NCBI GenBank assembly: GCA_000432255.1
Contig: HF989926.1
Span: 65 to 64,064 of the forward strand
Reading direction: 5' to 3'
Source of the DNA: Acholeplasma sp. CAG:878
GTDB lineage: Bacteria > Bacillota_I > Bacilli_A > RF39 > UBA660
DNA length: 64,000 nucleotides
The notes below the pieces were generated by a model, which did not search any database, had not been told where the DNA came from, and was given only the letters and a program-made list of their open reading frames with translations. This document shows positions 11,966 through 54,437 of this stretch, piece after piece (position 1 is the first letter of the stretch; every line of letters starts with the position of its first letter). Both the position numbers and the translations under genes were made by a program.

Positions 11966-12099
11966 AAACACCTCACTATAATATTATAACAAAAAAATAT
12001 AAAAAAATTAATAAAATAATGTTTAACTTTTAAAAAAATGTGATATAATTATAAAGACAACGAGAGTGGGCAATCCCACTCTTTATATTTGGAGGAGTT

Positions 12100-12348
12100 A
12101 TGGAAGAAAAAATATTTGATTTATTAAATGGTGTACTTAGAAATAACGGATATATATTATCAAATGTCATTTATGAACAAGAAGGAAACACTAATTTTTT
12201 AAGAATTGTCATTGATAAGGAAGGTTATATCAACATTAATGATTGTGTTTTAGTTAACGAATTAATCAATCCAATTTTGGATGAAGCAGACTTAATTGAA
12301 GAAAGTTATATTTTGGATGTTTGTTCAAAAGAGAAAGGAAGTGAATAA
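12100..12348 (+). CDS. rimP: Ribosome maturation factor RimP, N-terminal domain only (82 aa)
   Basis: Aligns by eye to the RimP N-domain (...FLRIVIDKEGYININDCVLVNELINPILDE...YILDV...). It stops immediately before nusA, so the usual ~70-aa C-terminal domain is absent. Confidence 0.7.
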   Translation: MEEKIFDLLNGVLRNNGYILSNVIYEQEGNTNFLRIVIDKEGYININDCVLVNELINPILDEADLIEESYILDVCSKEKGSE

Positions 12349-12349
12349 A

Positions 12350-13501
12350 ATGGATATTAAAGAATTTAAAAAAGCCCTAGAAGTTTTAAACAAAGAAAAA
12401 GGTATTTCTGAAGATTATATTTATGAAGCACTAGAGTTAGCCTTAACAAGTGCTTATAAAAAGAATTATCATTCGCTTTCTAATGTTAGAGTTGAAATCA
12501 ATAAAGAAAAAGGAGAAATTCATGTTTATTCATTTAAAACAGTTGTTTTAGATAAAGAAAATGAAAGTGACCATCCAATAATGATTGAAGTAGAAGATGA
12601 TGAAAACGAAGGTCAAACAATTGAAGAAGAAAAACCATATATTTTTGATGAAAGAATTCATATTACTTTAGAAGATGCTAGAAAAATTGTTCCAGAAATT
12701 AAACTAGGTGAAACTATTGAGGAAGAGGTTACTCCAAGAGATTTTGGAAGAGTTGCTGCTGCTACGGCTAAACAAGTAGTTATTCAAAAAATAAGAGAAG
12801 CAGAAAGAAATATGATAAGTGAAGAATTTGGTGATAAACAAGATGAAATGGTAACAGGATTAGTTGCCATGGAAGATGTCAGAAACTATTATATTGATTT
12901 AGGAAAAACACAAGGAATATTACCAAAAACAGAAATCATTCCAGGAGAAACTATTAAAATGGGTTCGAATATTAAAGTGTATATTACTAAAGTTGAAAAT
13001 AATAGTAAAGGACCACTTATTTTATTAAGTAGAAGTCATTATGGTTTTGTAAAAAGATTATTTGAATTAGAAATTCCAGAAATAAACGAAGGAATCATAT
13101 TTGTATATAGTGTTGCTAGAGAAGCAGGTGTTAGAAGTAAAATAGCAGTTTACTCTGAAAATAAAAATGTTGATGCAATTGGAGCATGCATAGGAGAAAA
13201 AGGAACTAGAATTGGAAATATTTTAAAAGAACTAGGTCCAGAAAAAATAGATATTGTTTTATATGTAGATGATAAAGCGAAATTTATTGAAAATGCCTTA
13301 GCTCCCGCTAAAAATCTTCATGTAATAATTACTGATGAAGCTAAAAATGAAGCTTTAGTAGTTGTAGACGATGATAATTTATCTCTTGCTATTGGAAGAA
13401 AAGGATTAAATGTTAAACTAGCGTCACGTTTGACTAAATTTAAAATAGACATTAAAACAACGAGTGAAGCAAGTAAAATTGGTATTAACTTTGTTGATTA
13501 G
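12350..13501 (+). CDS. nusA: Transcription termination/antitermination factor NusA
   Basis: MDIKEFKKALEVLNKEKGIS... N-terminal domain followed by S1 and KH domains. RBS GGAAGTGA lies upstream. The track ORF starting at 12296 is an over-extension. Confidence 0.93.
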   Translation: MDIKEFKKALEVLNKEKGISEDYIYEALELALTSAYKKNYHSLSNVRVEINKEKGEIHVYSFKTVVLDKENESDHPIMIEVEDDENEGQTIEEEKPYIFDERIHITLEDARKIVPEIKLGETIEEEVTPRDFGRVAAATAKQVVIQKIREAERNMISEEFGDKQDEMVTGLVAMEDVRNYYIDLGKTQGILPKTEIIPGETIKMGSNIKVYITKVENNSKGPLILLSRSHYGFVKRLFELEIPEINEGIIFVYSVAREAGVRSKIAVYSENKNVDAIGACIGEKGTRIGNILKELGPEKIDIVLYVDDKAKFIENALAPAKNLHVIITDEAKNEALVVVDDDNLSLAIGRKGLNVKLASRLTKFKIDIKTTSEASKIGINFVD

Positions 13502-13509
13502 GAGAATTT

Positions 13510-13770
13510 ATGAAAAATAAAAAAGTACCAATGAGAACTTGTGTTGTAACTAAAGAAAAATTTCCAAAAAGTGAACTAGTTAGAGTTTTAAGAACTCCTG
13601 AAGGAAATGTTATATTAGATTTAACCTTAAAAGCTAATGGTAGAGGAGCTTATCTAAAAAAAGATAAGGATGTTATAAATAAAGCAAAAAAAACAAAAAT
13701 CTTGAATAAGATGTTAGAGACAGATATAAAAGACGATATATATGAAGAGTTATTACAATTATTAAAATAG
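13510..13770 (+). CDS. ylxR: YlxR/DUF448 family RNA-binding protein
   Basis: PMRTCVVTKEKFPKSELVRV...GRGAYL signature, in the conserved position between nusA and infB. Confidence 0.8.
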   Translation: MKNKKVPMRTCVVTKEKFPKSELVRVLRTPEGNVILDLTLKANGRGAYLKKDKDVINKAKKTKILNKMLETDIKDDIYEELLQLLK

Positions 13771-13782
13771 GAGGTGTTTAAT

Positions 13783-15864
13783 ATGATGAGTGTATTAGAA
13801 TATGCCCAAGATATAAACAAGACCGTAAGTGAAGTACTTAAAAAATGTGAAGAATTAGATATTAAAGTTAATAATGAAGATGACCTATTATCTGATGAAG
13901 ACATTACAATTTTAGATAACGCTGATTTTAGTGATATGGATGAAATTGTTGATGAAATAATTGAAACTAAAAACATTAAAATAGATGAAGGTGTTTCTAA
14001 ACAAAAATTAAAAAAGAAAAGTGAAAAACAAACACAGCAAAATAGTAAAAAAGATTTTGCAATCAAGAAAAAAGAAATGTATAAAAACAAAGAAAAACTA
14101 ATGAGTAATGCAAGTGTTAGTGAAAAAGTTGTTTTATACAAAGAAAATATGACAGTTGGAGAACTTGCAAAAGAATTAAATGTAACAAGTGGTGAATTAG
14201 TAAAAAAACTATTTAATTTAGGTGTTATGGCAACTATTAATATGCCAATATCATTTGAAAATGCTGAAATATTAGTAATTGATTATGATAAAGAACTTAA
14301 AAAAGATAGTACTTTAGATGTTACAAATTTTGAAGAATTTGAAATTGTTGATGATGAAAAAGATTTAGTTACAAGACCAGCAGTTGTAACAATCATGGGA
14401 CATGTTGACCATGGTAAAACGACTTTACTTGATACAATTAGAAAAACAAATGTAGCAGGAGGAGAAGCTGGTGGAATAACACAAGCTATTAGTGCATATC
14501 AAGTTAAAGTAAAAGACAAATATATAACATTTATTGATACTCCAGGACATGCAGCATTTACTGAAATGCGTGCTAGAGGAGCAAGCATAACTGATATCAT
14601 AATTATAATCGTTGCTGCTGATGATGGTGTTATGCCACAAACAATCGAAGTAATAGACCATGCAAAAGCTGCTAATGTACCAATTATTGTAGCTATTAAT
14701 AAAATCGATAAACCAGATGCAAATAAGGAAAGAGTTCTAACTCAGTTAGCCGAACACGGATTAACTCCAGAAAGTTGGGGCGGAGATACACTAGTAAGTT
14801 ATATTTCTGCCAAAGAAGGAACGGGCATAGAAGACTTATTAGATAATATTTTATTAATTGCAGAAATGGAAGATTATAAAGCAAATCCAAATAGATATGC
14901 TGTTGGAACTGTAGTAGAATCAAGACTAGATAAACACTTAGGTCCAATTGTAACCGTTTTAATTCAAAATGGAACATTAAGGTTAGGAGACCCAATAGTA
15001 GTAGGAACAGCTTATGGAAAAGTAAGAACACTTAAAAATGATAAAGGAGAAGATATAACCGAAGCTACACTATCACAACCAGTAGAAATTACAGGAATTA
15101 ATGAAGTTCCAGAAGCAGGAGATAGATTTATGGCTTTTGAAACAGAAAAACAAGCAAGAAGTATTGGTGAAGAAAGAAAAATCCAAGCTAAAAATAAAGA
15201 AAACAGCAATAAAGCAGCAGTAACTTTAGATGATTTGTTTGCCAAAATTCAAGATGGCGCTAAAGAAATAAAAGTAATTATTAAAGCAGATGTAAACGGA
15301 AGTTGTGAAGCAGTTAAAAACTCTTTAGAAAAAATCGAAGTTGAAGGCGTAAAAGTTAAAGTTATTAGAAGTAGTGTAGGCGCAATTAAAGAAAGTGATA
15401 TCGTTTTAGGTAAAGCAAGTGATGCTATTATAATTGGTTTTAATGTAAGACCAAGTAATTCTATTAGAGATTATGCTAAAGAACAAGGCGTTGAAATAAG
15501 ACTTTACGATATAATTTACAAAGCAGTAGAAGAAATGGAAGCTGCTATGAAGGGTATGTTAGACCCAGTTTATGAAGAAAAAATAACAGGAACTGCTGAA
15601 ATTAGAAAATTATTTAAGTTTTCTAAAGTTGGAACAATTGCAGGTTCATATGTAACAGATGGAGTTATTAAAAGAGATTCTAATGTAAGAGTAATTAGAG
15701 ATGGCGTTACAATATATGATGGAAAAATAAATTCAATTCAAAGAGAAAAAGACACTGTTAAAGAAGTTAAAAAAGGTTTAGAATGTGGTATTACAATTGA
15801 AAATTACAATGACCTTAAAGAAGGCGATGTCTTTGAAGCATATGAAATGATTGAAGTTAAATAA
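13783..15864 (+). CDS. infB: Translation initiation factor IF-2
   Basis: GTPase motifs [14 protein letters not shown] and NKID plus the IF2 C-terminal domains. GGAGGTG lies 6 nt before the ATG at 13783. The track start at 13774 is the GTG inside the RBS. Confidence 0.95.
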
Positions 15865-15886
15865 GAGTAGTTGTACTCTTATTTTT
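15863..15886 (+). terminator. Rho-independent terminator after infB
   Basis: AAGAGTA-gttg-TACTCTT hairpin followed by ATTTTT. Confidence 0.7.
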
Positions 15887-15926
15887 GATTTTATTGATAT
15901 TTTATAATAAATTACAGTTACTTTAA

Positions 15927-15988
15927 AGCTAAAATGTAAATCAAAATATAGCCAAAATTAAAACCAAAACACAGCCAAAATGTAAAAT
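15927..15988 (+). repeat. Three direct repeats of AGCYAAAATKTAAA at exact 23-bp phasing upstream of the AAA ATPase gene
   Basis: Copies at 15927-15941, 15950-15964 and 15973-15988. An extended -10 TGtagTATAAT at 16011-16021 and an RBS GGGAGGAG follow. Confidence 0.6.
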
Positions 15989-16041
15989 TATATTAACAAA
16001 ATACAAAATATGTAGTATAATAAATTATGGGAGGAGATACA

Positions 16042-17304
16042 ATGGAAAAATACATACCTAGAATTGTAGATAGTTTACTAAAAAATAAACTTGAATATAT
16101 AGGAGCAGTTTTGATTGAGGGATGTAAATGGTGTGGAAAAACAACAACAGCAAGGCAATTTGCAAAAAGTTACATTGAATTTCAAGATCCAGATAAAAAA
16201 ATACAATACGATAAAATTAATCAAACCAAACCATCATTATTTTTAGAAGGGGAAAAACCAAGACTATTTGACGAATGGCAAATGTATCCAGTTATTTGGG
16301 ATTCTATTAGAATGAATGTCGACCATACAAGATTAAAAGGACAATATATTTTAACAGGCTCGGCAAGACCAAAAGAGGATAGCGTTATGCACACAGGGAC
16401 AGGCAGAATAACAAAACTATTAATGAGGCCAATGTCATTATATGAATCTGGAGAATCTAATGGTTGTGTTTCTTTAAGCGATATAATAAACGGCAATGAT
16501 ATAGAGGGTGTATCTACTTTAGAGTTCGAAGATTTAATTGATGTTATGATGAGAGGCGGTTGGCCAGAATCATTAAATATTAAAGGAAACAATAAATATG
16601 AAATTTCTAAAGATTATATTAAAAGTCTATTAAGTGAAGAAGTGAAAGTAGTTGATGGAATCGAAAGAAATCAACAAAAAATGAGTGCAGTTTTAAAAAG
16701 TATTTCAAGAAATGTATCGACAAGTGTAAGTAAAGCAACAATTTTAGAAGATGTTAAATCTCATTTTATTAATGAAATATCAAGACCAACACTAGATGAT
16801 TATTTAAATACTTTGGAAAAGTTATATATATTAGAATATGTTCCTGCTACTAATTTAAACTTAAGGTCAAAAACACCTTTAAGAATTTCACCTAAATTAG
16901 AATTGGTTGATCCATCACTTGTAGTTGCAACGTTGAATTTAAATAAAGAAGATCTAATAAAAGATTTAAATTTTACAGGATTTATATTTGAAAACATGTG
17001 TATAAGAGATTTAAAAATATACGCAGATGCAATAGATTCAAGATTATCTTACTATAGAGATAAAAATGATTTTGAGATAGATTGTATTTTAGAAACTTCA
17101 AGTGGAAAGTGGGGAGCTATCGAAATCAAACTAGGTGCTGGAGAAATTCCAAGTGCCGTTTCAAATCTAACTAAATTTAAGGAAAAAGTAAATACTGCTC
17201 AATATGGAGAACCATCATTTTTAATGGTATTAACAGGTGCAAATTATTCATACAAAAGAGAAGATGGAATATATGTTGTATCAATTGGAAATTTAAAAAA
17301 TTAG
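16042..17304 (+). CDS. AAA+ ATPase with DUF4143 (AAA_14 / COG1373 family)
   Basis: Walker A GCKWCGKTT and the overall architecture of the ATPase + DUF4143 family. The ATG at 16042 follows an RBS. Confidence 0.7.
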   Translation: MEKYIPRIVDSLLKNKLEYIGAVLIEGCKWCGKTTTARQFAKSYIEFQDPDKKIQYDKINQTKPSLFLEGEKPRLFDEWQMYPVIWDSIRMNVDHTRLKGQYILTGSARPKEDSVMHTGTGRITKLLMRPMSLYESGESNGCVSLSDIINGNDIEGVSTLEFEDLIDVMMRGGWPESLNIKGNNKYEISKDYIKSLLSEEVKVVDGIERNQQKMSAVLKSISRNVSTSVSKATILEDVKSHFINEISRPTLDDYLNTLEKLYILEYVPATNLNLRSKTPLRISPKLELVDPSLVVATLNLNKEDLIKDLNFTGFIFENMCIRDLKIYADAIDSRLSYYRDKNDFEIDCILETSSGKWGAIEIKLGAGEIPSAVSNLTKFKEKVNTAQYGEPSFLMVLTGANYSYKREDGIYVVSIGNLKN

Positions 17305-33284: not shown

Positions 33285-33332
33285 TTTAAGGTTAAAAATA
33301 ATTTATAATGATATAAAAGGTAGTTGGTGAAG

Positions 33333-34826
33333 ATGAATAAACGCGGATTTACATTAGTAGAATTAATAGGAACAATTGTAATATTACTTGTTTTAAGTTT
33401 ATTAGTTTTTCCTAATTTATTAAATTTAATTAAAAATTCAAAAAAAGATATAAGTACTTCAACTAAAGATTTTATATATGGACAAGCAAAGTCATATATA
33501 TATGATAATGTTAATGGTTATACTTTAAAAGAAGGAAATATTTATTGTATAGGGTTGAAAGATTTAGTAAGTAAAAATTATTTAAATACTCCATTAAAAG
33601 ATGCTGAATCTGGAAATGATATCGATTTAAGTAAGCAAATAGAGGTAAAAGTTAACAATAATGATTATAGTTATGAATTAGTTGAGACCTGTACTCCTAA
33701 AAGTTATTACACTGACAATAGTGGTGCAAATACGCCTAAATTATTTAATAATATGGTACCAATCAAATACGAGAATAATAAATGGTTAGTAGCTGATTTA
33801 TATTCAAAATGGTATGATTATAATTCTAAACAATGGGCAAATGCAATAGTATTAAATAGTGGAGTTACTAAAAATGTAGGGGATGAAGTAACAGAAGAAG
33901 AAATATCTTTATGGTATGTATGGGTTCCAAGATATAAATATACTATATTTAATGGAAACAAAGGAAATGTTTCTGAACAATTAATCAACATAACCTTTGA
34001 AAATGGAGTAGATAAAACAGGGACATTAAGATGCAATGATAATGCAGATGGAAGTGAAACATGTACTGATAATACATATGGAAGTATAGTAAATGGAAAA
34101 AGTACATACACACATCCAGCATTTAAATTTGGTAATACTAATTTAACTGGATTCTGGGTAGGAAAATTTGAAGTGAGTGGAAGTACAAGTACAATCACAG
34201 TTAAACCAAATGTAACAAGTTTAAGAAATCAAACAGTATCAAGTTTCTTTACAGCCATTCAAAATGTAAAAACAACATATGGAATAAATAATGCAGATTC
34301 ACATATGATGAAAAATATGGAATGGGGAGCAGTAGCATACTTAAAACAAAGTAAATATGGACTAGGAACAACAGATATAGCAGTTAATACAAATTCAAGT
34401 TATTATACTGGTGGAGGAACAAGTGATGCATATAAAACAAATGTTGCTCAGTCAACAACGGGAAATATCTATGGAGTATATGATATGAGTGGTGGCGCTT
34501 GGGAATATGTAATGGGTAATTACAATGATACTATAAGTTCTTCGGGCTTTAGTTCAATGCCGGATAAAAAGTACTATAATAAGTATACAAGTAGTACTGG
34601 AAAAATGGGCGATGCCACTATGGAAACGTTAAAGACTTCTGGTACTTATGGTGGAGGAGATGGATGGTATTCAGATTTTACAAAATTCCCACCAACTAAT
34701 GGTCAATGGTTTTATCGTAGTGGTGGCAATAGTGATGCAAAATATGCTGGTGTATTCTATTTCTATAGTTCTGGTGGTCAATCAATTAAAACAATTTCAT
34801 CTCGTGCAGTTTTATCTGCTCAATAA
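33333..34826 (+). CDS. Prepilin-type (N-terminal cleavage/methylation) protein, 497 aa, with C-terminal FGE-sulfatase/SUMF1-like (C-type-lectin fold) domain
   Basis: The leader MNKRG|FTLVELIGTIVIL has Gly at -1, Phe at +1 and Glu at +5, followed by a hydrophobic helix. The C-terminal motifs NMEWGAVAYL, IYGVYDMSGGAWEYVMGNY, WFYRSGGNS and SSRAVLS match remembered FGE-sulfatase signatures. Confidence 0.7.
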   Translation: MNKRGFTLVELIGTIVILLVLSLLVFPNLLNLIKNSKKDISTSTKDFIYGQAKSYIYDNVNGYTLKEGNIYCIGLKDLVSKNYLNTPLKDAESGNDIDLSKQIEVKVNNNDYSYELVETCTPKSYYTDNSGANTPKLFNNMVPIKYENNKWLVADLYSKWYDYNSKQWANAIVLNSGVTKNVGDEVTEEEISLWYVWVPRYKYTIFNGNKGNVSEQLINITFENGVDKTGTLRCNDNADGSETCTDNTYGSIVNGKSTYTHPAFKFGNTNLTGFWVGKFEVSGSTSTITVKPNVTSLRNQTVSSFFTAIQNVKTTYGINNADSHMMKNMEWGAVAYLKQSKYGLGTTDIAVNTNSSYYTGGGTSDAYKTNVAQSTTGNIYGVYDMSGGAWEYVMGNYNDTISSSGFSSMPDKKYYNKYTSSTGKMGDATMETLKTSGTYGGGDGWYSDFTKFPPTNGQWFYRSGGNSDAKYAGVFYFYSSGGQSIKTISSRAVLSAQ

Positions 34827-34918
34827 CAAATACAAACTGATAAAATATTTTATCAGTTTTAATATTGCTAAAAATAAACATTTATTGTATAATTAAATGA
34901 GAATAAGGAGTGGTTTAG

Positions 34919-36517
34919 ATGGTATTAAGAAAGCCGTATGCCTTTTTTATAAAACATTTTAAGCTAATACACTTAATATTAGCAGTTTTATGTATTTATT
35001 CAACAGTACAAACACATAAATTATATACTTTTTTCAGTGATTATATTTATAAAACAGTTAATGTTATAGGACAAGACCTAGTTGGTTCATTATATACTGG
35101 TTTTATGACTTTCGGACCGATTTTAATAATTATATTAACAATTACAATAATGGTTATAATGATTGTAAAAGAAAAACCATTTACATTTTATATAATAAAT
35201 ATATTAATATTTATATATGTAATAATTATTTCACAAGTATGTCAATCTACACTATATGATATGCAAATATCCTTGTTAGATATAAGAGCAATCAGAATAG
35301 TAAGAGATTTAACTTTGGTTAGTTTTGTAATGCAAATAATAAGTTCTATTATTATTGGAATTAGAGGAACAGGCTTTGATGTTAAGAAATTTGATTTCGG
35401 ACAAGATTTACAAGATTTAGAAATAGATGAAAGTGATAGAGAAGAATTTGAAGTTGATTTTTCAGTTGATAGAAATAAAACAAAAAGAAAATTAAAATAT
35501 CAAATTAGGAAGTTAAAATATATTTTCAAAGAAAATAAATTAGCATTTATAGTAGTTACAGTATTTATATTATTAGTAACAGGAGGTTTAACTTATTATT
35601 ATATAAGTACAAGACCTAGGGTTTTAAATCAAGGCGAATTATTTAGAGGAAATGGTCTAAGTTTATCAATTGAAAATAGTTATTTAACTAGATATGATTA
35701 TAAAGGACAAGAAATAGAAAAAGATTTTTCTTTTCTAGTTTTACAAATTAAAGTACTTAATTTAAGTAAATATCAAAATACTCTTCCATTTGCAACATCA
35801 AAAATCGTTATAGGTTCTTATTCATACACGCCAACTTTAAATTATGAAGAGTATTTATTTGATTTTGGTAATATTTATAAAAATGAAAATATAGGTGAAG
35901 AATATACTTATAAAACTTTAATATATAAAATTCCTACTTTACTAACTGATGAAGAAATATTGTTTAATTATGTTAATAAAGTAAATTCAAAAGAAAAATT
36001 CTTTAAAGATGAAGTTAAAATAAGATATATTGATTTAGATAAAGAAAAAGATAAAAAAACTTATGAATTAGGTGAAGAAATTAGTTTTGAAGACTTACCT
36101 TTTAAAAATTATAAAATTAAAATTGATTCTTATGAAATTAAACCTTCGTTTAAATTAGAATATAACTATTGTTATAAAAAGGAATGTACTAAATCATATG
36201 AATATGTAAAACCTAGTATAGTAAGCAATTATGATAAAGTTTTATTAAAATTAAAAGGAACTTATAATTTGAGTGATGAAGTAAATATCGAAGGCGTATA
36301 TGATATTTATGATTTAATTGATAAGTTCGGTTATTTAAAATATGAATTAAATAATGAAGTTAAAACTCAAAATGTTAAATTTAAGGAAGTTACTAGTAAT
36401 AAAGCTAAAGAGATGGATACATACTATATAGAAGTATTAAAAGAATTACAAAATGCTTCAAAGATATCTTTAATTATTAAAATTAGAAATCAAACTTACG
36501 AATATACTTTAAAATAA
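34919..36517 (+). CDS. Polytopic membrane protein with large extracytoplasmic C-terminal domain (532 aa), function unknown
   Basis: About five predicted TM helices in the first ~230 aa, then a beta-rich soluble domain. RBS AAGGAG lies upstream. Confidence 0.6.
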   Translation: MVLRKPYAFFIKHFKLIHLILAVLCIYSTVQTHKLYTFFSDYIYKTVNVIGQDLVGSLYTGFMTFGPILIIILTITIMVIMIVKEKPFTFYIINILIFIYVIIISQVCQSTLYDMQISLLDIRAIRIVRDLTLVSFVMQIISSIIIGIRGTGFDVKKFDFGQDLQDLEIDESDREEFEVDFSVDRNKTKRKLKYQIRKLKYIFKENKLAFIVVTVFILLVTGGLTYYYISTRPRVLNQGELFRGNGLSLSIENSYLTRYDYKGQEIEKDFSFLVLQIKVLNLSKYQNTLPFATSKIVIGSYSYTPTLNYEEYLFDFGNIYKNENIGEEYTYKTLIYKIPTLLTDEEILFNYVNKVNSKEKFFKDEVKIRYIDLDKEKDKKTYELGEEISFEDLPFKNYKIKIDSYEIKPSFKLEYNYCYKKECTKSYEYVKPSIVSNYDKVLLKLKGTYNLSDEVNIEGVYDIYDLIDKFGYLKYELNNEVKTQNVKFKEVTSNKAKEMDTYYIEVLKELQNASKISLIIKIRNQTYEYTLK

Positions 36518-36551
36518 TAAAAAAATATGCTATAATTGAAGGGAGTTAAAT

Positions 36552-37196
36552 ATGAAAAAAATATTATTATTACTTGTATTACTTTGTCTTCCTTATACAA
36601 AAGTTAATGCTTTCTATTGTACTTATCAAGAACAAGCAAGATTAAAAAGCTTAGCTACTAATGTAAATATAAGTTATGATTTCAATGAGAGTAATAAAAC
36701 TTTTACTTTTAACTTAATTAATTTAAATAAGGATTTGTATTTCATGGATAGAACAGATGATAAGATTTACAATTATACAAAAAATGAAATAAATTTGACG
36801 GGTTACAAAAGTGGACAAAAAGTTAAATTTGAATTTTATTCAGATGTTGAATTTTGTGATAAAGTGTTATATACTTATGTAGTAACACTACCAATATATA
36901 ATCCTTATTACAAAGAAAAAGTTTGCGAAGATGTCCAAAATTATAATTTGTGTCAAAAGTGGAGTAATCATGGTTTAAGTAGAACAGCTTTTATTGAAAA
37001 AGTAAACGAATATAAAAAAACATTAGAAAAACCAAAAGAAGATGAAATAAAAGAGGAAACTAAAAAACATATTTCTCTTTTGACTAATGTAATAGAGTTT
37101 TTAACAAGTTATTATTATATTTTTATAATATTAATAGTTGGTATTATTGTTACAGTAATAATTGTTAAGAATAAGAAAAGTAATATATATAAGTAG
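36552..37196 (+). CDS. Secreted, C-terminally membrane-anchored Cys-containing protein (214 aa), function unknown
   Basis: A signal peptide (MKKILLLLVLLCLPYTKVNA) and a C-terminal TM helix with a basic tail. Confidence 0.55.
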   Translation: MKKILLLLVLLCLPYTKVNAFYCTYQEQARLKSLATNVNISYDFNESNKTFTFNLINLNKDLYFMDRTDDKIYNYTKNEINLTGYKSGQKVKFEFYSDVEFCDKVLYTYVVTLPIYNPYYKEKVCEDVQNYNLCQKWSNHGLSRTAFIEKVNEYKKTLEKPKEDEIKEETKKHISLLTNVIEFLTSYYYIFIILIVGIIVTVIIVKNKKSNIYK

Positions 37197-37205
37197 GAGG
37201 TACCA

Positions 37206-37607
37206 ATGAAAGAATCGTTTTGGGGCGCTATGGTCGTAGGACTTGGACTTGTAGCAATATTCTTTATATACTTTTTTCAATCGGTAACTAATGTTGATGA
37301 ACATAACTACCATTTGTTAAAAGAAGCAACCGAAGCTGCTATGCATGATGCATTAGATTTAGGTTTATATAGAGAAAAAGGAGAAGTTAGAATCGATAGA
37401 GAGAAATTTGTTGAAAATTTCTTAAGAAGATTTGCTGAGAGTGCAACTTTATCTGATAATTATCAAATTGATATTTATGATGTCAATGAAGAACCACCTA
37501 AAGTTACCTTGGTAGTTAAAAGTGGAAAGGATACTGGTTTAACTGGAGAAAAAATGGAATTCACTATTGAAAACAAATTAAATGCAATATTTGAAATACC
37601 ATATTAG
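37206..37607 (+). CDS. N-terminally membrane-anchored small protein (133 aa), function unknown (pilus-assembly accessory?)
   Basis: A single N-terminal TM helix (GAMVVGLGLVAIFFIYFF) and a soluble acidic domain. It is tightly coupled to the flanking genes. Confidence 0.5.
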   Translation: MKESFWGAMVVGLGLVAIFFIYFFQSVTNVDEHNYHLLKEATEAAMHDALDLGLYREKGEVRIDREKFVENFLRRFAESATLSDNYQIDIYDVNEEPPKVTLVVKSGKDTGLTGEKMEFTIENKLNAIFEIPY

Positions 37608-37627: not shown

Positions 37628-38497
37628 ATGAATAATGTTTTAGTTTCAATTAAAAGATTTTTTAAAAACAAAAATGTCGTTACAGTATTAGGAGTAATAT
37701 TAATATTAGGTTTATTATATTTTGGTTATAATAGAACTATTAAAGAACAAACAAATCCAGTTAGAATTCCAGTTGCTACACAAACAATTCAACCAAGAAC
37801 TTTAATTACAGATGAAATGGTTACATTTATAAGTGTACCAAAGTCAATGGTATCAGATAACGTATTGAAGGGTACAGGTAGTATTGTAGACAAGTATACA
37901 GCTGTTAATACAGTAATTCCAAAAGGAAGCATGTTTTATTCAGATGTATTAGTTGAAAAAGAAGATTTACCAGATTCAGCATTTGTTGAAGTTCCAGTTG
38001 GACAAACACCATATGCATTATCTGTTACTAGCCAATCAACTTATGGAAATTCAATTTTTCCAGGTAACATTATCGATGTTTATATGAAAGCAACTGATGA
38101 AAATGGACAAATTATTGTAGGTAGATTATTAGAGGATGTTAAAGTATTAGCTGTTAAAGATAATGCAGGTAACAATGTATTTGAAGATACAACAGCCAAT
38201 AGAACTCCATCAACACTATTATTTGGTGTTAATAATGAAACTTACGTATTATTAAAAAGAGCTGAATACTTAAAATCAAAAGGAGTTGAACTATTCCCAG
38301 TTCCTTATGGTGGTAATGTTCAATTAACAGGTAATACTAAAGTTGATAGAGAAGAATTAGTTGAATTAATCGATTCATTAAGTATTGGTTATATAAGTGA
38401 AGATGAATTCCAAGATCAAGTTCAAGACGAAATTGAAAAAAATCAACAAGAACAACAAGAAAATCAAAATAGTCAACAAAATAATGGAGCACAATAA
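37628..38497 (+). CDS. CpaB/RcpC-like pilus assembly protein (SAF domain)
   Basis: N-terminal TM helix, a SAF-like segment (PVRIPVATQTIQPRTLITDEMVTFISVPKS) and a Gln-rich C-terminus. Confidence 0.6.
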   Translation: MNNVLVSIKRFFKNKNVVTVLGVILILGLLYFGYNRTIKEQTNPVRIPVATQTIQPRTLITDEMVTFISVPKSMVSDNVLKGTGSIVDKYTAVNTVIPKGSMFYSDVLVEKEDLPDSAFVEVPVGQTPYALSVTSQSTYGNSIFPGNIIDVYMKATDENGQIIVGRLLEDVKVLAVKDNAGNNVFEDTTANRTPSTLLFGVNNETYVLLKRAEYLKSKGVELFPVPYGGNVQLTGNTKVDREELVELIDSLSIGYISEDEFQDQVQDEIEKNQQEQQENQNSQQNNGAQ

Positions 38498-39573
38498 TGC
38501 ACGAAACATTATTTTCGCAAATTGATTTTGGACCACTATTACCATATTTAAATAGTGATGATGTCACTGATATTTCATACAGTAACAATGGTCAAATATG
38601 GTTAAAAACATTATCTCGTGGTATCTTTAGGGTTGAAAATTCTGAAGTAAATAATGCCATGATGGAAAAACTTGCTTTCCAATGCTCAAACGTTATGGGG
38701 AAAACATTTAATATGGCTCACCCATTCTTGGATTCAGAAAGTCCAGAACTTCGTATGAATTTCGTTCACGAATCAATTGCTACAAATGGTATTGCATGTG
38801 TTATCCGTAAAACACCAGCTAAAATAAGACTTGAAAAAGAAAAAATAATTGCTGAAAAGTATATTACTTTAGATGTTCATGATTTTTTAGTTCAATGTGT
38901 TTTAGGACATTGTAATATAATTGTTTGTGGTGAGACTGGTAGTGGTAAAACGGAGTTTGTTAAATATTTGGCATCTAAAACAAAAGAAAATGAAAAAATA
39001 ATTACAATTGAAGATACTTTGGAACTCCATTTAGATAGAATATTTCCTCATAGAGATATTGTTGCAATGAAAACAAATAATGTTGCTTCATACTCAGAAG
39101 TATTAGTTACTTGTATGCGTCAAAACCCTAAATGGATATTATTATCCGAAGTTCGTAGCGCTGAAGCAGTAACGGCAGTTCGTAACTCAATTTCATCAGG
39201 ACACTATATTTTATCTACAATCCATGCTGACAAAGCATCCGCTATACCTACTCGTATGTATAGTTTGCTTGAAACTAGCCAAGATGTTGAGCAATTCTTA
39301 AAAACAATTCATAGATATGTTCAATTAGGAGTATTAGTAAGAGGTTATCAGGATAAAGTAACAAAAAGGTTTGTTCGTGAAATAGGAGAAGTTACAGAGT
39401 TTTATGTCGATGAAGACAATAACTCAAGATACAATGTTATTTATCAAAAAGCGCCAACTGGTAAAGTAATAAGACATAATCCAACAAAATATTTAATCGA
39501 TTATATTGAAGGACAAGGTGTTACTCTACCAGAAGGGTTTGTTAATCCAGCTTATGATATTAAAGAAGATTAA
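38497..39573 (+). CDS. CpaF/TadA/VirB11-family secretion ATPase
   Basis: Walker A (VCGETGSGKTEF), Walker B with the Asp/His boxes of the T2SS-E/VirB11 superfamily, and a size of 358 aa typical of TadA. Confidence 0.75.
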   Translation: MHETLFSQIDFGPLLPYLNSDDVTDISYSNNGQIWLKTLSRGIFRVENSEVNNAMMEKLAFQCSNVMGKTFNMAHPFLDSESPELRMNFVHESIATNGIACVIRKTPAKIRLEKEKIIAEKYITLDVHDFLVQCVLGHCNIIVCGETGSGKTEFVKYLASKTKENEKIITIEDTLELHLDRIFPHRDIVAMKTNNVASYSEVLVTCMRQNPKWILLSEVRSAEAVTAVRNSISSGHYILSTIHADKASAIPTRMYSLLETSQDVEQFLKTIHRYVQLGVLVRGYQDKVTKRFVREIGEVTEFYVDEDNNSRYNVIYQKAPTGKVIRHNPTKYLIDYIEGQGVTLPEGFVNPAYDIKED

Positions 39574-39586
39574 GGAGGAGTAAAAA

Positions 39587-40489
39587 ATGAATGAGTTTAT
39601 TTTTATAGCAATAGCCTTTATACTAATTTTTATCATTGTATATAGAAAAAATAGTGGTGAAAATGTATATAAGTATATAAGTAGAAATGTAGGACTTATA
39701 TATGAAAAATTTGCTCCTTATTCTTTTAAAATGGTAAGGGAAAAAGTTAAAGAACTAGGACAAGAATATACACCTAGACAATATGCAGTTCAAATAATAG
39801 CCTTTTCCGTAGGTGCGGCAGTTGTATCATATTTATACTTTTATAACTTAGTTTGGTGTATTGTATATATAGCAGTTGCGGTAGCAATTATTCCTTACTT
39901 AGCTTATTTAAGATGTAAAAGATTATATAGTGAATTTATATTTGAACAAATTCAAGTTTATACTACCAACACTATAATGGAATTTGCAACAACTCAAAGT
40001 TTTGTTAAAGCCTTAGAAGGTGTTTATGAATCTGGTGTATTAGAAGACCCAGTTAGAAGCGATGTTAAGATGATGATTGATTTGGCATATAAAAATGGTA
40101 CAATTACTGAATCAGTTGATTATATGAATAGTAGATATGATTATTACATAGTTAGAAATATGCACCAACTATTTACCCAAATTACTAATGAAGGTGCAAG
40201 AGATGCATCTGGTTCGTTAGAAAATATGTCACTTGATATTGATATGTTAGTTGAAGGCGTTTATAGAGATAGAATCGATAGAGCAACATTCCATAAAAAA
40301 TTCTTACAATTTGGTGTTGTATTATATTTAATGATTATGTTAGTTCAGTTCTTACTTGGAACTGAAACATATCTTGAAATGCTTAAAATTTGGTATGTTC
40401 AATTATTACTACACGGAATTATAATTATTAATACATATTTTATCCTTAATGGAGAAAAATTCTATAATGAGAATGTGGGGGCTGAGTAA
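39587..40489 (+). CDS. TadB-like (T2SS-F-family) inner membrane protein
   Basis: Polytopic membrane protein of ~300 aa immediately downstream of the ATPase, as expected for TadB. The sequence match itself was not verified. Confidence 0.5.
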   Translation: MNEFIFIAIAFILIFIIVYRKNSGENVYKYISRNVGLIYEKFAPYSFKMVREKVKELGQEYTPRQYAVQIIAFSVGAAVVSYLYFYNLVWCIVYIAVAVAIIPYLAYLRCKRLYSEFIFEQIQVYTTNTIMEFATTQSFVKALEGVYESGVLEDPVRSDVKMMIDLAYKNGTITESVDYMNSRYDYYIVRNMHQLFTQITNEGARDASGSLENMSLDIDMLVEGVYRDRIDRATFHKKFLQFGVVLYLMIMLVQFLLGTETYLEMLKIWYVQLLLHGIIIINTYFILNGEKFYNENVGAE

Positions 40490-41277
40490 TGTTATTTTTA
40501 GCAATCGGTATAATTTTATTGTTTATAATGTTTTATAATAACTATATTGATACTCAAGGCTTTATTAAAGAAACTCAACCTATATTTGGATTTCTTAAAG
40601 AAAGTGATTATGAATTTTTAGTTAGTGTAAAATATGGTGGAATTGATAAAGTTGATATTAACAAATTATTTGGAATAAGAGTTAGAAACGGTTTATTGGT
40701 AATTGTATTAATGTTATTCTACTTTATTAAAGATTTAAAATTTATCTATATTTTAGTTTCTGTAATAGTAGGATATGTTGTATTTAAATCTTCATATACA
40801 AGTTTAAAATCTTATTACAAAAAGAATTTATATAATATTAATTTAATGTTACCTTACTATTTAAAAAGTTTGGAAATTTTAGTTCAACACTATACTGTTC
40901 CAGTTGCACTATCTCGTTCAATTGAAACAGCACCTGATGTTTTTAAACCAGGCTTAAGAAAATTGGTTGACAGAATAGAAGCTGGAGATTCGACGGTTGA
41001 CCCATATATGGATTTTGCTAAAGAATATCCAGTTAGGGATTCAATGCGTATGATGAGATTGTTATACAGACTAGGGTTGGGAAGTCAAGAAAACAAACAA
41101 GAACAATTAATGATGTTTTCAAGAACTGTATCTAACTTACAAAACAAATCTCGTGAACAAAAATACGCTGAAAGACTTGAAAGAATGGAAAAGAAAACCA
41201 TGATTATGTTATTTGTAACTGGTGGTGGTATACTACTATTAATGTTGTTATCAATGATGATGATGATGAATTATTAA
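40489..41277 (+). CDS. TadC-like (T2SS-F-family) inner membrane protein
   Basis: Polytopic membrane protein of 262 aa, translationally coupled to the preceding gene (ATGA overlap). Confidence 0.5.
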   Translation: MLFLAIGIILLFIMFYNNYIDTQGFIKETQPIFGFLKESDYEFLVSVKYGGIDKVDINKLFGIRVRNGLLVIVLMLFYFIKDLKFIYILVSVIVGYVVFKSSYTSLKSYYKKNLYNINLMLPYYLKSLEILVQHYTVPVALSRSIETAPDVFKPGLRKLVDRIEAGDSTVDPYMDFAKEYPVRDSMRMMRLLYRLGLGSQENKQEQLMMFSRTVSNLQNKSREQKYAERLERMEKKTMIMLFVTGGGILLLMLLSMMMMMNY

Positions 41278-41362: not shown

Positions 41363-41596
41363 ATGAAAGAAGCTGCTGGAGAAGCAAATATGACAGTTAT
41401 TACAATCATTCTAATTGGAGTTATCGCAGCTATAGCTATTCCACTTGTAAGAAATGCGATGACAAGTACAAGTAAACAAGCTTGTTGTAATAGTGCCGGA
41501 GGTGTTTGGTCAGGAGGAGAATGTGCTGAATTATCTGCTAGTGGCCAAAGCACATATGATGCATGTGTTTCTAAAACTGAAAATGCAGGACAATAA
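41363..41596 (+). CDS. Small Flp-like (atypical) pilin candidate, 77 aa, with 4-Cys C-terminal region
   Basis: A strong RBS GAAGGTGGTG, then a short polar leader ending in Gly (MKEAAG), a ~22-aa hydrophobic segment and the C-terminus CCNSAGGVWSGGECAEL...DACV. It has its own terminator. The Flp EY motif is lacking. Confidence 0.55.
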   Translation: MKEAAGEANMTVITIILIGVIAAIAIPLVRNAMTSTSKQACCNSAGGVWSGGECAELSASGQSTYDACVSKTENAGQ

Positions 41597-41603
41597 TATG
41601 AAT

Positions 41604-41636
41604 CTCGTTTCTTGAAAATAGAAACGAGGTTTTTAT
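41604..41636 (+). terminator. Rho-independent terminator after the small pilin gene
   Basis: CTCGTTTC-ttgaaaata-GAAACGAG hairpin followed by GTTTTT. Confidence 0.8.
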
Positions 41637-41829
41637 TATGTCTGAATTAACATATCAATATGAAATTGAAATGTAATAAAAATTGTCATGCAAAATAAGT
41701 TAAACTTCTTGTACAAGTTTAGTAATATCTAAAAACATATTTTATTATGAAATAAAAGAGATTGGGTATTGAAAATTTGTGTTAAATATTATACAATTAT
41801 GTAAATATGTGTTGGGAGTGTGTTTTGGT

Positions 41830-44622
41830 ATGTTTGGTAGTTCTAATACAAAAGATAATAAAATGATTTCAAAAAACCGCAAATGCCTTTTTTGTGGTTT
41901 TAATGTTAAGATGGGATTCACGTTAATTGAATTGCTTGCTGCGTTGGTAGTTTTGGCGATAATAGCTTTAATAGTATATCCTACAATTGGCAAATTATTA
42001 GCAAATAATAAAACAAAAGCATATGAAAAACAATTAGATGTAATAGAGGTTGCTGCTTCTAACTGGCTAATTGAAAATGAAGGCAAATTGAAAGATAACG
42101 CCTATGCTCTACCAATAAATGATATAGTTGGAAGCGGATTTATAGAAGAAAATGAATTGATTAATCCAATTAATAACGAACCACTTACAGGATGCATTTT
42201 CATAACATGGAGAAAAAATATTAAACAATACGAATATAATTATGTTGAAAATTGCGAAGAGTTTATAGTACCAAAATTATTGTCATTAAAAGCAAGTAGC
42301 AGTGAGAATGAACACGGATGGAGAAACAAAGATTTTTATGTTTCTCTAAGTGGAGAATATTTAGAAAACTATTATTATTGTATAGATAACAAAAAATGTG
42401 AACCAAATATAATGGTAACTGATGTAAATAAGACTATAGCATTTAATGAAGAAGGAATAAAATACGTTTGTGCTTACGGAACGAATAAATCAGGAGAAAC
42501 AGAATCGATTTGTGAAAAATATAAATTAGATAAAACGAAACCAGTTATTGGGAGTATTGTATTTAGTGGAAAACAAGGTTTAAATAATTGGTTTGTATCA
42601 GACGTAACTGTTAATGTAACAGAATCAACTGATGCTTTAAGTGGAATAGATAATAATATATTAAGTCCAAGTGAAACATCAATAACAAAAGATACTAAAG
42701 GAACAACATATACTTTAACTGCAAAAGATAAAGCTGGAAACATAAGTAGTGTTAGTTATGCTGTAAAAATAGATAAAACCAAACCAATACTAGGAACACT
42801 AACAATAAGTGGAACTAAAGGAAATAATGATTGGTATAAAAGTGATGTAGTATTTAGTGTTAAGGATGGTAGTGATAGTATGTCAGGACACGCTTCTACT
42901 ACATCAAGTATTACAAGTATAACCAAAGATACTAAAGGAACGAAAGTAATATTAACAACCAAAGATAATGCTGGTAATACTACAACTAAAGAATATATAA
43001 TTAAAATGGACAAAACAGCACCTACAATAGAAATGGTTAATCCGACTAATGGTAATTGGACAAATAAAAATATAGAAATAACAAGTAATTTTTCTGATAA
43101 TATATCAGGAATAGTACCATCATCATTAGCGTGGTCAGATGATAATACTAATTGGCATAACTATTCTAATACAAGTACAACAACATTTAAAGATACGTGG
43201 AGTGGTGAAGGAAATAGAACGGGTTATAACAAAGTGTGTGATTATGCTGGAAACTGTAGTACAACATCTACTCCAATTAGAATCGATAAAACCAATCCAA
43301 TAGTAGGGGAGTTAGTAGTAGCAAGTGGGACTTTAGGCACAAATGGTTGGTACACAAGTAATGTAGTGTTTAGTGTGAAAAATGGAAGTGATGCATTAAG
43401 TGGACATGGTAGTACAACAAGTAGTATAAGTAGCATAACAACAAATACAAAAGGAACAAATGTGGTAGTGACAACAAAAGATAAAGCAGGAAATAGTACA
43501 GCAAAAACATACACATTTAAAGTAGATAAAAACGCACCTACCATAACTCCTAAATATTCAACTGTAACAATAGGAAGCATAAGTGAAGTAAATGTATCGG
43601 ATTTGTTTATAATTAATTATTCAATTAGTGGAGGATACGTAACTTGTAATGTTAATAAAACAAAAGATATAAAAGCTGTTAATAATCCACTTAGATGTAC
43701 AGCAACTGGAGGAAATGGATTAATTGCTGAAGCAAAAATAAATGTTAAAAACCAATTAGCAAGTATTGCTGTTACTACCCCACCAAATAAAACATTATAT
43801 TCCGTTGGTTCTGCTTTTGATAAAACAGGTATGGTAGTTACAGCATATTATAAAGATGGAACCTCAAAAGTGGTTACCAATTATACTATTGAGTCAAGTG
43901 TAACACGATATGGCCGTTCTCATATAGGTAAGGTTAAAAAGAACTGGGGGATCAATTATTTATATCCAACTAGAAGAGACCTTGATGAATACGATGATTT
44001 AATTATAACTTATACTGAAGATGGTGTTACTAAAACCACAACTACGCCAATAACGGTTGCTATATATGCAAATCAAGTAAAAAATATTGTTATAGCTTCA
44101 GAACTTTCAAGAGTTAATGTAGCTAAAGTAACAAATTATTATTCAAATCCGGGTGGTACAAGTCATATTAAAACTTCATATGAAATACCAACAGATAACG
44201 AGTATTATAGATATGAGGTTGGTTCTAATTATATTAGACTGCATTCGTTAAAAGCAGGATATTATTCAAGTGATTCTATAAGAGTTCATTTTGAATTATA
44301 CGATGGTACTATATTTAGAGCGGGATATTTTGAAAATATAGATAGCGTAAATACAGATATTAAATATAGTTTTACAGTAGCAAGATTTATTAAGAATTCC
44401 CCACCTTATGGACAATTCTTAGGAGCTACAGGATATTTATTCCAACAACCGCTAACAACCATAGTGTTAGGATGGCAAACATTCAATAATATAACAGATG
44501 CTTCTGGATCTGCGCCTATTGGTGCTTCAGCTCAAAACGGAGCGACTTATATGGAATATAAGTTTTCTAACTTTGTTATGAATGGTAGAAATATGAATGT
44601 TGTGTATACACTTGATTCTTAA
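41830..44622 (+). CDS. Giant prepilin-type protein (~930 aa) with pilin-like N-domain, four tandem ~95-aa Ig-like repeats and a Big_3-like module; candidate pilus adhesin
   Basis: The prepilin motif ...KMG|FTLIELLAALVVLAIIALIV has Glu at +5. The repeats read DKTKPxIGxLxxSGxxGxNxWYxSDVxFSVxDGSDxxSG...TKDTKGT...KDxAGNxS...DKTxP. A Big_3-like segment is LASIAVTTPPNKTLYSVGSAFDKTGMVVTAYYKDGTSKVV. The start is uncertain (41779, 41830 or 41863). No LPXTG sorting signal. Confidence 0.65.
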   Translation: MFGSSNTKDNKMISKNRKCLFCGFNVKMGFTLIELLAALVVLAIIALIVYPTIGKLLANNKTKAYEKQLDVIEVAASNWLIENEGKLKDNAYALPINDIVGSGFIEENELINPINNEPLTGCIFITWRKNIKQYEYNYVENCEEFIVPKLLSLKASSSENEHGWRNKDFYVSLSGEYLENYYYCIDNKKCEPNIMVTDVNKTIAFNEEGIKYVCAYGTNKSGETESICEKYKLDKTKPVIGSIVFSGKQGLNNWFVSDVTVNVTESTDALSGIDNNILSPSETSITKDTKGTTYTLTAKDKAGNISSVSYAVKIDKTKPILGTLTISGTKGNNDWYKSDVVFSVKDGSDSMSGHASTTSSITSITKDTKGTKVILTTKDNAGNTTTKEYIIKMDKTAPTIEMVNPTNGNWTNKNIEITSNFSDNISGIVPSSLAWSDDNTNWHNYSNTSTTTFKDTWSGEGNRTGYNKVCDYAGNCSTTSTPIRIDKTNPIVGELVVASGTLGTNGWYTSNVVFSVKNGSDALSGHGSTTSSISSITTNTKGTNVVVTTKDKAGNSTAKTYTFKVDKNAPTITPKYSTVTIGSISEVNVSDLFIINYSISGGYVTCNVNKTKDIKAVNNPLRCTATGGNGLIAEAKINVKNQLASIAVTTPPNKTLYSVGSAFDKTGMVVTAYYKDGTSKVVTNYTIESSVTRYGRSHIGKVKKNWGINYLYPTRRDLDEYDDLIITYTEDGVTKTTTTPITVAIYANQVKNIVIASELSRVNVAKVTNYYSNPGGTSHIKTSYEIPTDNEYYRYEVGSNYIRLHSLKAGYYSSDSIRVHFELYDGTIFRAGYFENIDSVNTDIKYSFTVARFIKNSPPYGQFLGATGYLFQQPLTTIVLGWQTFNNITDASGSAPIGASAQNGATYMEYKFSNFVMNGRNMNVVYTLDS

Positions 44623-50677: not shown

Positions 50678-50762
50678 GCTTGTGTGGCGGAACTGGTAGA
50701 CGCGCACGACTCAAAATCGTGTAACTTATGTTGTGAGGGTTCGATTCCCTCCACAAGCACCA
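50678..50762 (+). tRNA. tRNA-Leu (anticodon CAA)
   Basis: Cloverleaf folded by hand: acceptor GCTTGTG/CACAAGC, D-arm, anticodon stem CACGA/TCGTG with loop CT-CAA-AA (U33, A37), a long variable arm, T-arm GAGGG-TTCGATT-CCCTC, discriminator A and an encoded CCA. Track ORF 50684-50878 is spurious. Confidence 0.85.
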
Positions 50763-50861
50763 GATTGATAGGAAACTCGAACTTTTATAAATTCGAGAGT
50801 AATAAATTACTAACAGAAATGTTAGTTTTTTTGTTATTTAAGAAAGGAAAAGTGATGAGTT

Positions 50862-51131
50862 ATGACAATAGAAACTAAAGAACTTGTAATAAGTGAAGAA
50901 TTAAAAAGAAAGGTAGAAATGATTTGTAGGTTTGCTTATGTTGACTACACTATCACAAATGGAAATATTAAAAGTATTAAAAACACAAATATTGCTATGG
51001 TTAAACCTCATATAGTAAAAATTAAAGGTATTGATTATTTAATATTTGATGAATGTGATGATATTTTTATAAATGGTTATAAAGAGAAAATTAAGTTTAA
51101 AGATTTTGAAGAATATATTAAAACCCACTAA
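50862..51131 (+). CDS. Hypothetical small protein (89 aa), first island gene (possible recombination directionality factor, speculative)
   Basis: Clean ORF. No recognisable motif. Confidence 0.45.
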   Translation: MTIETKELVISEELKRKVEMICRFAYVDYTITNGNIKSIKNTNIAMVKPHIVKIKGIDYLIFDECDDIFINGYKEKIKFKDFEEYIKTH

Positions 51132-51135
51132 AACC

Positions 51136-51164
51136 TTGACAAATTAAGAATATATGTATATAGT
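51136..51164 (+). promoter_or_regulatory. Sigma-A-type promoter (TTGACA-17-TATAGT) upstream of the recombinase leader
   Basis: TTGACA at 51136-51141, a 17-nt spacer, then TATAGT at 51159-51164. Confidence 0.6.
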
Positions 51165-51221
51165 ATAGAACTAATAAAAGCAAGCAGTATCGCTTTTTAA
51201 AGGGGAAAGAGAGGTACTTCT

Positions 51222-54437
<3,216 letters not shown>

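Follow-up and report, generated by a model that had tools for sequence, protein, structure and literature searches.

A probable modular type IV pilin bearing a static lectin-fold head of the diversity-generating retroelement class in an uncultured gut Bacilli genome

The gene described here is located on the forward strand at positions 33333–34826 of a 64,000-nt stretch of DNA from Acholeplasma sp. CAG:878 (contig HF989926.1, positions 65 to 64,064; hereafter the window). According to the list of open reading frames (ORFs), it is complete, with an ATG at 33333 and a stop codon ending at 34826, and it encodes a protein of 497 amino acid residues. An in-frame TTG at 33324, three codons upstream, is an alternative start; the homologues start with MNKRG or MNKKG and do not use the TTG. 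A preliminary description of this DNA had placed the ORF correctly, and every string that it quoted was found in the translation. Homologues of the 497-aa protein numbered 7,531 at E ≤ 1e-3, and the nearest named relative, 98% identical and in identical synteny, was found in the NCBI metagenome-assembled genome (MAG) GCA_018371135.1 (labelled Acholeplasma sp.). The protein is likely to be a bimodular type IV pilin that carries a lectin-fold head of the class diversified by diversity-generating retroelements (DGRs), with the copy in the window serving as a static adhesin.

The N-terminal module (residues 1–125) has the properties of a type IV pilin. The N-terminus consists of MNKRG followed by FTLVELIGTIVILLVLSLLVFP, and it combines a leader ending in Gly, Phe at +1, Glu at +5 and a hydrophobic stretch of ∼20 residues, as in a class III signal peptide. 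The Pfam model N_methyl (PF07963) scored 23.8 bits against a cut-off of 21.2, TIGR02532 scored 18.9 against 16.3, and residues G5, F6, T7, L8 and E10 were invariant in 32 homologues. In the AlphaFold model, residues 1–125 form a long alpha-1 helix (8–59) and strands at 70–74, 102–108 and 111–117, with predicted local distance difference test (pLDDT) values of 70–82. This pilin fold, a long alpha-1 helix on a beta-sheet, was also indicated by profile matching: the family profile matched the solved type IV pilins PilE1, MshA and GspG, with the best match to Streptococcus sanguinis PilE1 (8pfb, E 4.9e-7), in which query residues 6–112 correspond to PilE1 residues 1–110. The class III signal peptide and the pilin alpha-1 helix of the preliminary description were thus corroborated. 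Among otherwise similar proteins, the pilin modules belong to three or four unrelated sequence types.

Of the C-terminal module (residues 126–497), the last ∼200 aa had been described as an FGE-sulfatase-like domain (FGE, formylglycine-generating enzyme) with a lectin fold. The Pfam model FGE-sulfatase (PF03781) matched the module with 23.8 bits against a cut-off of 23.3, over 52 residues (362–413) and model positions 158–204 of 255. The same model matched all 32 close homologues (E ≤ 0.01) and 6 of 21 diverse module sequences. The assignment to the FGE-sulfatase family from the sequence alone is marginal; of the motif correspondences that had been proposed for it, two, those of NMEWGAVAYL and YGVYDMSGGAWEYV, were reproduced by the profile alignments. 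When the full-length profile was searched against the PDB sequences, only pilins were obtained, and the link to the FGE fold emerged solely with a diverse module-only profile. The diverse module alignment (A2) matched a single solved protein, 5VF4 (E 2e-4), with PvdO as a further, weak match; 5VF4 is TaqVP, a DGR variable protein of Thermus aquaticus and the nearest solved relative of the module. The full-length AlphaFold model, built on a shallow alignment of 32 sequences with 59–99% identity, gave pLDDT values below 50 for the module, and Foldseek with this model, which is poor outside the pilin part, returned nothing significant. The structure of the module was taken from a module-only model built on a 107-sequence alignment. 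In three dimensions, the module has the FGE-type C-type-lectin fold, and its best structural and sequence relatives are the non-catalytic variable proteins TaqVP and TvpA. The lectin-fold proposal is supported by the profile match to TaqVP and by the module-only model. A more specific identity than the FGE-like label given first is that of a DGR variable protein, the class in which the module falls.

The module (∼126–497) is mobile, and an exhaustive profile search at E ≤ 1e-30 retrieved 1,955 cluster representatives (50% identity). The same module of ∼380 aa (proteins P0121–P0270 and P0271–P0385) was also observed on pilin-like N-termini that lack Glu5 (NKGFAISG...), on N-termini with SipW-type signals and camelysin/TasA (PF12389) matches, and in five to six tandem copies in giant proteins of 2,300–4,500 aa.

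The cysteine content was used to distinguish a binding scaffold, as favored in the preliminary description, from an enzyme. Cys residues are present in the 497-aa protein only at positions 72, 120, 234 and 244, and none is present in the C-terminal 253 residues. In FGE, the catalytic Cys pair lies C-terminal to the RGGSW-type motif, and this motif corresponds to residues ∼459–470 here (the pair is placed by reference to human FGE, not by alignment). Because no Cys follows residue 244, the module cannot carry the FGE catalytic pair, and this absence, together with DGR variable proteins as the nearest relatives, supports a non-enzymatic binding scaffold. It is hardly credible that the module acts as an oxidase or sulfoxide synthase of the FGE/EgtB/OvoA superfamily that is exported on a pilin. 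This reading was rejected on the missing cysteines; in addition, the whole protein contains only two His, a DinB-like domain is absent, the would-be active-site region is hypervariable across the family, and TvpA, one of the two best relatives, is without FGE activity (PMC5758913).

In 121 close homologues, ∼19 columns within the last ∼45 residues had entropies of 2.2–3.2 bits and alternated with invariant columns; the module outside this tail was nearly invariant, and 59 distinct tails were counted. With the window-type allele left out, 33 of 2,166 hypervariable cells held other residues than those reachable by adenine mutagenesis of AAY codons, so that 98.5% belonged to the AAY set. At two loci of the family (L042 and L012), the 3′ 150 nt of a gene with a prepilin module, the variable region (VR), is repeated 300–450 bp downstream as a template repeat (TR), and TR adenines account for all 10 VR/TR mismatches in L042 and for 16 of 17 in L012. 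The repeat is followed by an ORF with a MutS_I domain, by bAvd (E 5e-18) and by a reverse transcriptase (RT; RVT_1 E 1e-16, motifs IGNYTSQ and FMDD). With a third locus, L089 (described below), a TR and an RT were found in three relatives, and AAY-confined variation, a cognate TR, and an RT with Avd are all present among the relatives. The MutS-domain-I ORF (MSL class) lies between the TR and avd in L042 (2754–3143), L012 (9683–9934) and L089; MSL accessory genes are known in DGRs (Wu et al., PMC5758913).

A scan of species-representative genomes gave 78 loci, all from MAGs of uncultured Bacilli/Tenericutes save for a few labelled Muribaculaceae, with up to 8–9 sampled paralogues per MAG. Approximately half of 94 gene copies had a tail GC content of 0.50–0.64 against 0.30–0.36 in the gene body. 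A canonical prepilin N-terminus was found in 43 of the 94 copies, 23 with GC-rich and 15 with AT-rich tails, and many GC-rich copies end with a GC-rich anchor, TAG and a short hairpin whose loop is 4 nt long. A self-repeat filter detected two TR/VR pairs, and a TR-based blast search added TR-like copies in L045 and L053, where an RT is not nearby. Most paralogues with GC-rich tails have no adjacent cassette, and no cassette was found near paralogue P0073, which belongs to the same genome as the sister allele L082 (see below). Overall, these genes form a family of DGR targets that has undergone massive expansion. A more distant RT homologue (36–42% identity to the L042 RT) was seen at L075 (6120–6884), ∼3 kb upstream of a module gene in MAG MGG24433; it may represent a second DGR lineage serving the pilin–lectin family.

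The allele in the window departs from this pattern. Its tail has a GC content of 0.363 against 0.31 in the gene body, the residues K, Q and K are found at hypervariable columns, and framework columns are substituted. The gene ends AT-rich, with TAA and a long AT palindrome, and it has neither a GC-rich 3′ anchor of the initiation-of-mutagenic-homing (IMH) type nor a TAG-hairpin. No TR of the window tail was found within the 64 kb, where the TRs of L012 and L042 also had no match, and neither Pfam on the scanned ORFs nor tblastn queries with the L042 proteins detected an RT, Avd or MSL in the window. Within the 64 kb, the allele therefore has no adenine-confined VR, no cognate TR, no RT with Avd, and no GC-rich anchor or hairpin. 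The palindrome at the 3′ end of the gene was considered as a DGR target hairpin and rejected; it is long and AT-rich and also stands 3′ of the orthologous alleles with GC-rich tails, so that a terminator is the likelier identity, and it differs from the short hairpin 3′ of TAG in many GC-rich (live-type) copies.

The comparison with sister strains at the orthologous locus gave the strongest evidence for a static allele. L082 and L083 match the window at ∼100% identity for 2.3 kb on the upstream side and 2.2 kb on the downstream side, and the identity falls to 38–62% at ∼34430–34800, where their tail GC content is 0.563. Most differences among the GC-rich sister tails fall in positions one and two of NNC/NNT codons, whereas all three positions of the framework codons are identical, and a template was predicted from these tails. 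The exact predicted TR pattern had no match in the metagenome collection, and the degenerate framework pattern, which had no match in viral contigs, recovered L089 from the metagenome collection. This 2.7-kb contig is a full cassette of the clade of the window, with a target 3′ end (...SARAVLSAQ*), TR, MSL, Avd and RT. When the L089 TR was compared with the tails, its own VR showed 20 mismatches, of which 19 are at TR adenines (non-adenine divergence 1.0%), the L084 tail 20 (18 at adenines; 1.9%), the L082 tail 29 (21 at adenines; 7.7%) and the window tail 68 (24 at adenines; 43%). Near-identical sister strains thus carry a DGR-type variable tail at the same locus, and the divergence of 43% at non-adenine positions means that the window allele is not a product of the L089 template. 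Of the 79 differences between the window and the sister-strain cassette, 32 are at third codon positions, and the difference is the replacement of a 3′ cassette (allele) of ∼370 nt, not DGR mutagenesis.

The window tail recurs unchanged in seven proteins (P0001–4, P0062 and P0065 among them) with core differences of up to 14% and pilin modules of 22–25% identity. The presence of a window-type tail on P0062 and P0065, with such different pilin modules, indicates the exchange of N- and C-terminal cassettes among paralogues or genomes. Given that the tail is AT-rich, far from the TR of the clade, without a TR or RT in 64 kb and identical in diverged backgrounds, the window copy is a fixed, static, non-diversifying allele, that is, an adhesin of fixed specificity. 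The opposite reading, in which the window copy is an active target diversified in trans by a cassette beyond the 64 kb, draws on the action of DGRs on remote targets (PMC5758913), on the lack of an adjacent cassette for most GC-rich-tail paralogues and on the DGR-type alleles of the sister strains. It is nevertheless very unlikely: besides the distance from the clade TR and the identical tail on diverged cores, the GC content of the tail is genome-like rather than 0.50–0.64, the 3′ anchor and TAG-hairpin are missing, and both hypervariable and framework columns are altered.

The features of the gene and of the genes that follow it are listed in Table 1.

Table 1. Features of the pilin–lectin gene and the downstream pilus genes (positions in the window)
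Feature	Position	Strand	Basis
Complete gene, modular type IV pilin, 497 aa + stop	33333..34826	+	ORF list, homologues, synteny
Class III leader peptide MNKRG, predicted cleavage after Gly5	33333..33347	+	N_methyl, TIGR02532, invariant G5; cleavage predicted
Pilin module, residues 1–125	33333..33707	+	Family profile against solved pilins; pLDDT 70–82; mosaicism
Hydrophobic alpha-1N segment FTLVELIGTIVILLVLSLLVFP, Phe+1, Glu+5	33348..33413	+	Invariant residues; helix 8–59 in model
FGE-type C-type-lectin-fold module, residues 126–497, homologous to DGR variable proteins	33708..34823	+	
Sole stretch matched by Pfam FGE-sulfatase, residues 362–413, contains YGVYDMSGGAWEYV	34416..34571	+	
3′ cassette differing from sister strains, 38–62% identity, flanks ∼100%	34430..34800	+	Sliding identity against L082/L083/L084
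VR-equivalent tail, residues 449–496, static AT-rich allele; hypervariable in relatives	34677..34820	+	Entropy, GC, TR divergence
Perfect 26-nt AT-rich palindrome just 3′ of TAA stop, terminator-like	34834..34859	+	Also 3′ of GC-rich orthologous alleles L082–L084
Two conserved operon genes, no family: 532-aa membrane protein, 214-aa protein	34919..37196	+	
DUF5411 protein	37206..37607	+	PF17424 E 2.4e-54
CpaB/RcpC-like Flp-pilus assembly protein	37628..38497	+	PF16976 35 bits against 28.8; TIGR03177 E 4e-12
Secretion ATPase, TadA/VirB11 type	38497..39573	+	PF00437 E 7e-27; NCBIfam VirB11, TrbB and TadA all below cut-offs
Two putative TadB/TadC-position polytopic membrane proteins, no family match	39587..41277	+	Position alone
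77-aa ORF, hydrophobic N-terminus, candidate major pilin of Tad-like system	41363..41596	+	Weak archaeal Pilin_N, E 0.004
Second large prepilin, 947 aa, Ig-like repeats, closes pilus block	41779..44622	+	N_methyl 21.5 bits, Big_3

The pilin–lectin gene heads a conserved pilus block, whose synteny is kept in several strains, and the filament-assembly genes downstream of it encode a CpaB-like protein, a TadA/VirB11-type ATPase and two polytopic membrane proteins. The DUF5411 gene is a conserved member of this operon just upstream of the CpaB homologue, which hints at a pilus-related role for DUF5411. A terminator scan of the region found a single strong terminator-like hairpin, at 41600–41632, 3′ of the 77-aa ORF. 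A 946-aa relative of the second prepilin, encoded at L045 (277–3117), shares its N-terminal repeats and ends in a lectin-fold module; its gene has a GC-rich tail and a TR-like copy downstream, with no RT nearby. Elsewhere, the window is chromosomal (∼26% GC), with the 3′ end of a 23S rRNA gene, 5S rRNA, tRNA-Leu, uvrA, tyrS and tsaBDE; that the organism has a cell wall is suggested by genes for sortase, PASTA/polysaccharide-deacetylase and LysM proteins. What is probably an integrated mobilisable element occupies 50678–54437, where genes for a large serine recombinase and a Mob_Pre relaxase come after tRNA-Leu.

Based on these data, the following pathway is proposed. The prepilin would enter the membrane, where a prepilin peptidase would cut it after Gly5, and the alpha-1 helix would incorporate the mature pilin into a type IV filament, assembled either by the Tad-like machine encoded directly downstream or by a Com-type system elsewhere. 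The head, being bulky, would most likely be at the filament tip, by analogy with the modular pilins PilB and PilC of S. sanguinis (PMC8179133), and would bind its ligand via the surface formed by the last ∼45 residues. In the relatives, this surface is the DGR variable region, in which an adenine-mutagenized cDNA made by the RT from the TR replaces the 3′ end of the gene. The window tail was probably acquired or retained by recombination of a 3′ cassette.

Several points weigh against this picture of a polymerised pilin with a static head. The full-length model gives no relative arrangement of the pilin and head modules, and the tip location and the ligand are suggested by analogy. The window tail may be a VR that has decayed or a sequence that DGRs never targeted, and a cognate TR elsewhere in the genome would be compatible with the data despite the call of a static allele. 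The remaining points concern assembly. L084 keeps the orthologous pilin gene without the adjacent pilus operon, which is therefore variably present, and paralogues are scattered as orphan genes away from pilus genes. No prepilin peptidase was found in the 64 kb by a six-frame scan for the GxGD[..]K (A24-type) motif, a weak negative since only motifs were scanned and several ORFs of the window were never profiled. Taken together, these three points make a Com-type machine elsewhere, or plain membrane anchoring, conceivable. In L084 itself (11918–17110), the upstream genes are identical, and genes for Tex, a ComEA-like protein and ComEC come after the pilin gene in place of the operon.

Plain anchoring would make the protein a surface receptor or adhesin that is never polymerised, with its position beside a pilus operon being incidental. 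Besides the points on assembly, such an anchor would fit the occurrence of the module on SipW-type, camelysin or TasA N-termini, on plain transmembrane segments and in giant multi-module proteins, as well as the description of most cellular DGR targets as membrane-anchored binders (PMC8144416). It would not need Gly-1, Phe+1 and Glu+5, however, and these are invariant even though the pilin modules are only 22–25% identical; the cleavage and assembly signature is present in 43 of 94 copies, the sequence match with solved pilins is not confined to the helix (PilE1 residues 1–110), and the gene heads the pilus operon in several strains. A membrane anchor is therefore regarded as improbable, and assembly into a type IV filament remains the preferred reading.

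The protein was also compared with known systems. TvpA of Treponema denticola (PDB 2Y3C; FGE-sulfatase/CLec1 class of DGR targets) is a lipoprotein. The DGR-target survey (PMC5758913) mentions no pilin fusion, and the paralogue expansion of the window family is larger (up to 8–9 sampled loci per MAG). FGE-sulfatase-type proteins with a C-type-lectin (CLec) fold are the largest known DGR target class (PMC5758913). TaqVP shares only 15% sequence identity with the window module, lacks a pilin module and has been described as the product of a prophage (10.1101/2024.11.15.621889), whereas the window copy is without a VR/TR pair. Compared with SUMF1/FGE and SUMF2, the window module lacks the catalytic Cys and has an extra N-terminal beta-rich subdomain and loop insertions. 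IPR005532 denotes the SUMF domain. The protein has an N-terminal IPR012902 and a C-terminal domain that is not pilus-specific, as in modular pilins (Raynaud et al. 2021), and the architecture IPR012902–IPR005532 is present in Dataset S1 of that study with 8 proteins, which are not discussed there (PMC8179133). S. sanguinis PilB and PilC have the same design, namely a small pilin module with a grafted bulky binding module, for which exposure at the tip and a role in adhesion have been proposed (PMC8179133). Those modules are vWA and concanavalin-like lectin domains that are not hypermutated and belong to a type IVa pilus, whereas the head in the window has the FGE/CLec fold and the adjoining machinery is Tad-like.

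In Bacteroides, the Type V tip adhesins BfrT, BthT and BunT have a DGR-diversified C-terminal CLec head, and static and diversified heads coexist, the same logic as that of the live-type and static alleles described here (10.1101/2024.11.15.621889). Type V pili, however, are made from lipoprotein precursors by another assembly route (10.1101/2024.11.15.621889), whereas a type IV prepilin of Gram-positive-type Bacilli is concerned here. Pilins are not mentioned in the DGR-target survey (PMC5758913) or in the global DGR survey (PMC8144416). A literature search of incomplete coverage, combining "diversity-generating retroelement" with "type IV pilin" or "prepilin", found no paper, which leaves novelty unproven.

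Modular pilins and DGR variable proteins are each established, and here both meet on type IV pilins, in poorly known uncultured gut Bacilli. On its own, the window gene adds a new member to an architecture already catalogued; the newer part is the family-wide connection of DGRs with type IV pilins, together with the live and frozen alleles at one locus. For annotation, an FGE-sulfatase match on such a surface protein is best taken to mean a DGR-type binding head, not a sulfatase-maturing enzyme. In a broader proposal, to which we give an even chance, uncultured gut Bacilli would arm type IV filaments with programmable tips: dozens of paralogous pilin–lectin genes per genome would be rewritten by a single DGR acting in trans, and 3′ cassettes and pilin modules would be swapped between paralogues, so that a specificity could be locked at the pilus-operon locus, as in the window. 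If true, type IV pilins diversified by DGRs would be seen here for the first time, with two tiers of variation, mutagenic retrohoming and cassette replacement, which recall pilE/pilS variation plus an antibody-like diversification. The window and its sister strains constitute a natural experiment in which one gene at one site carries either a live-type or a frozen binding face, and it opens the questions of the ligand, of the selection for freezing a specificity, and of a hypervariable tip on a type IV filament.

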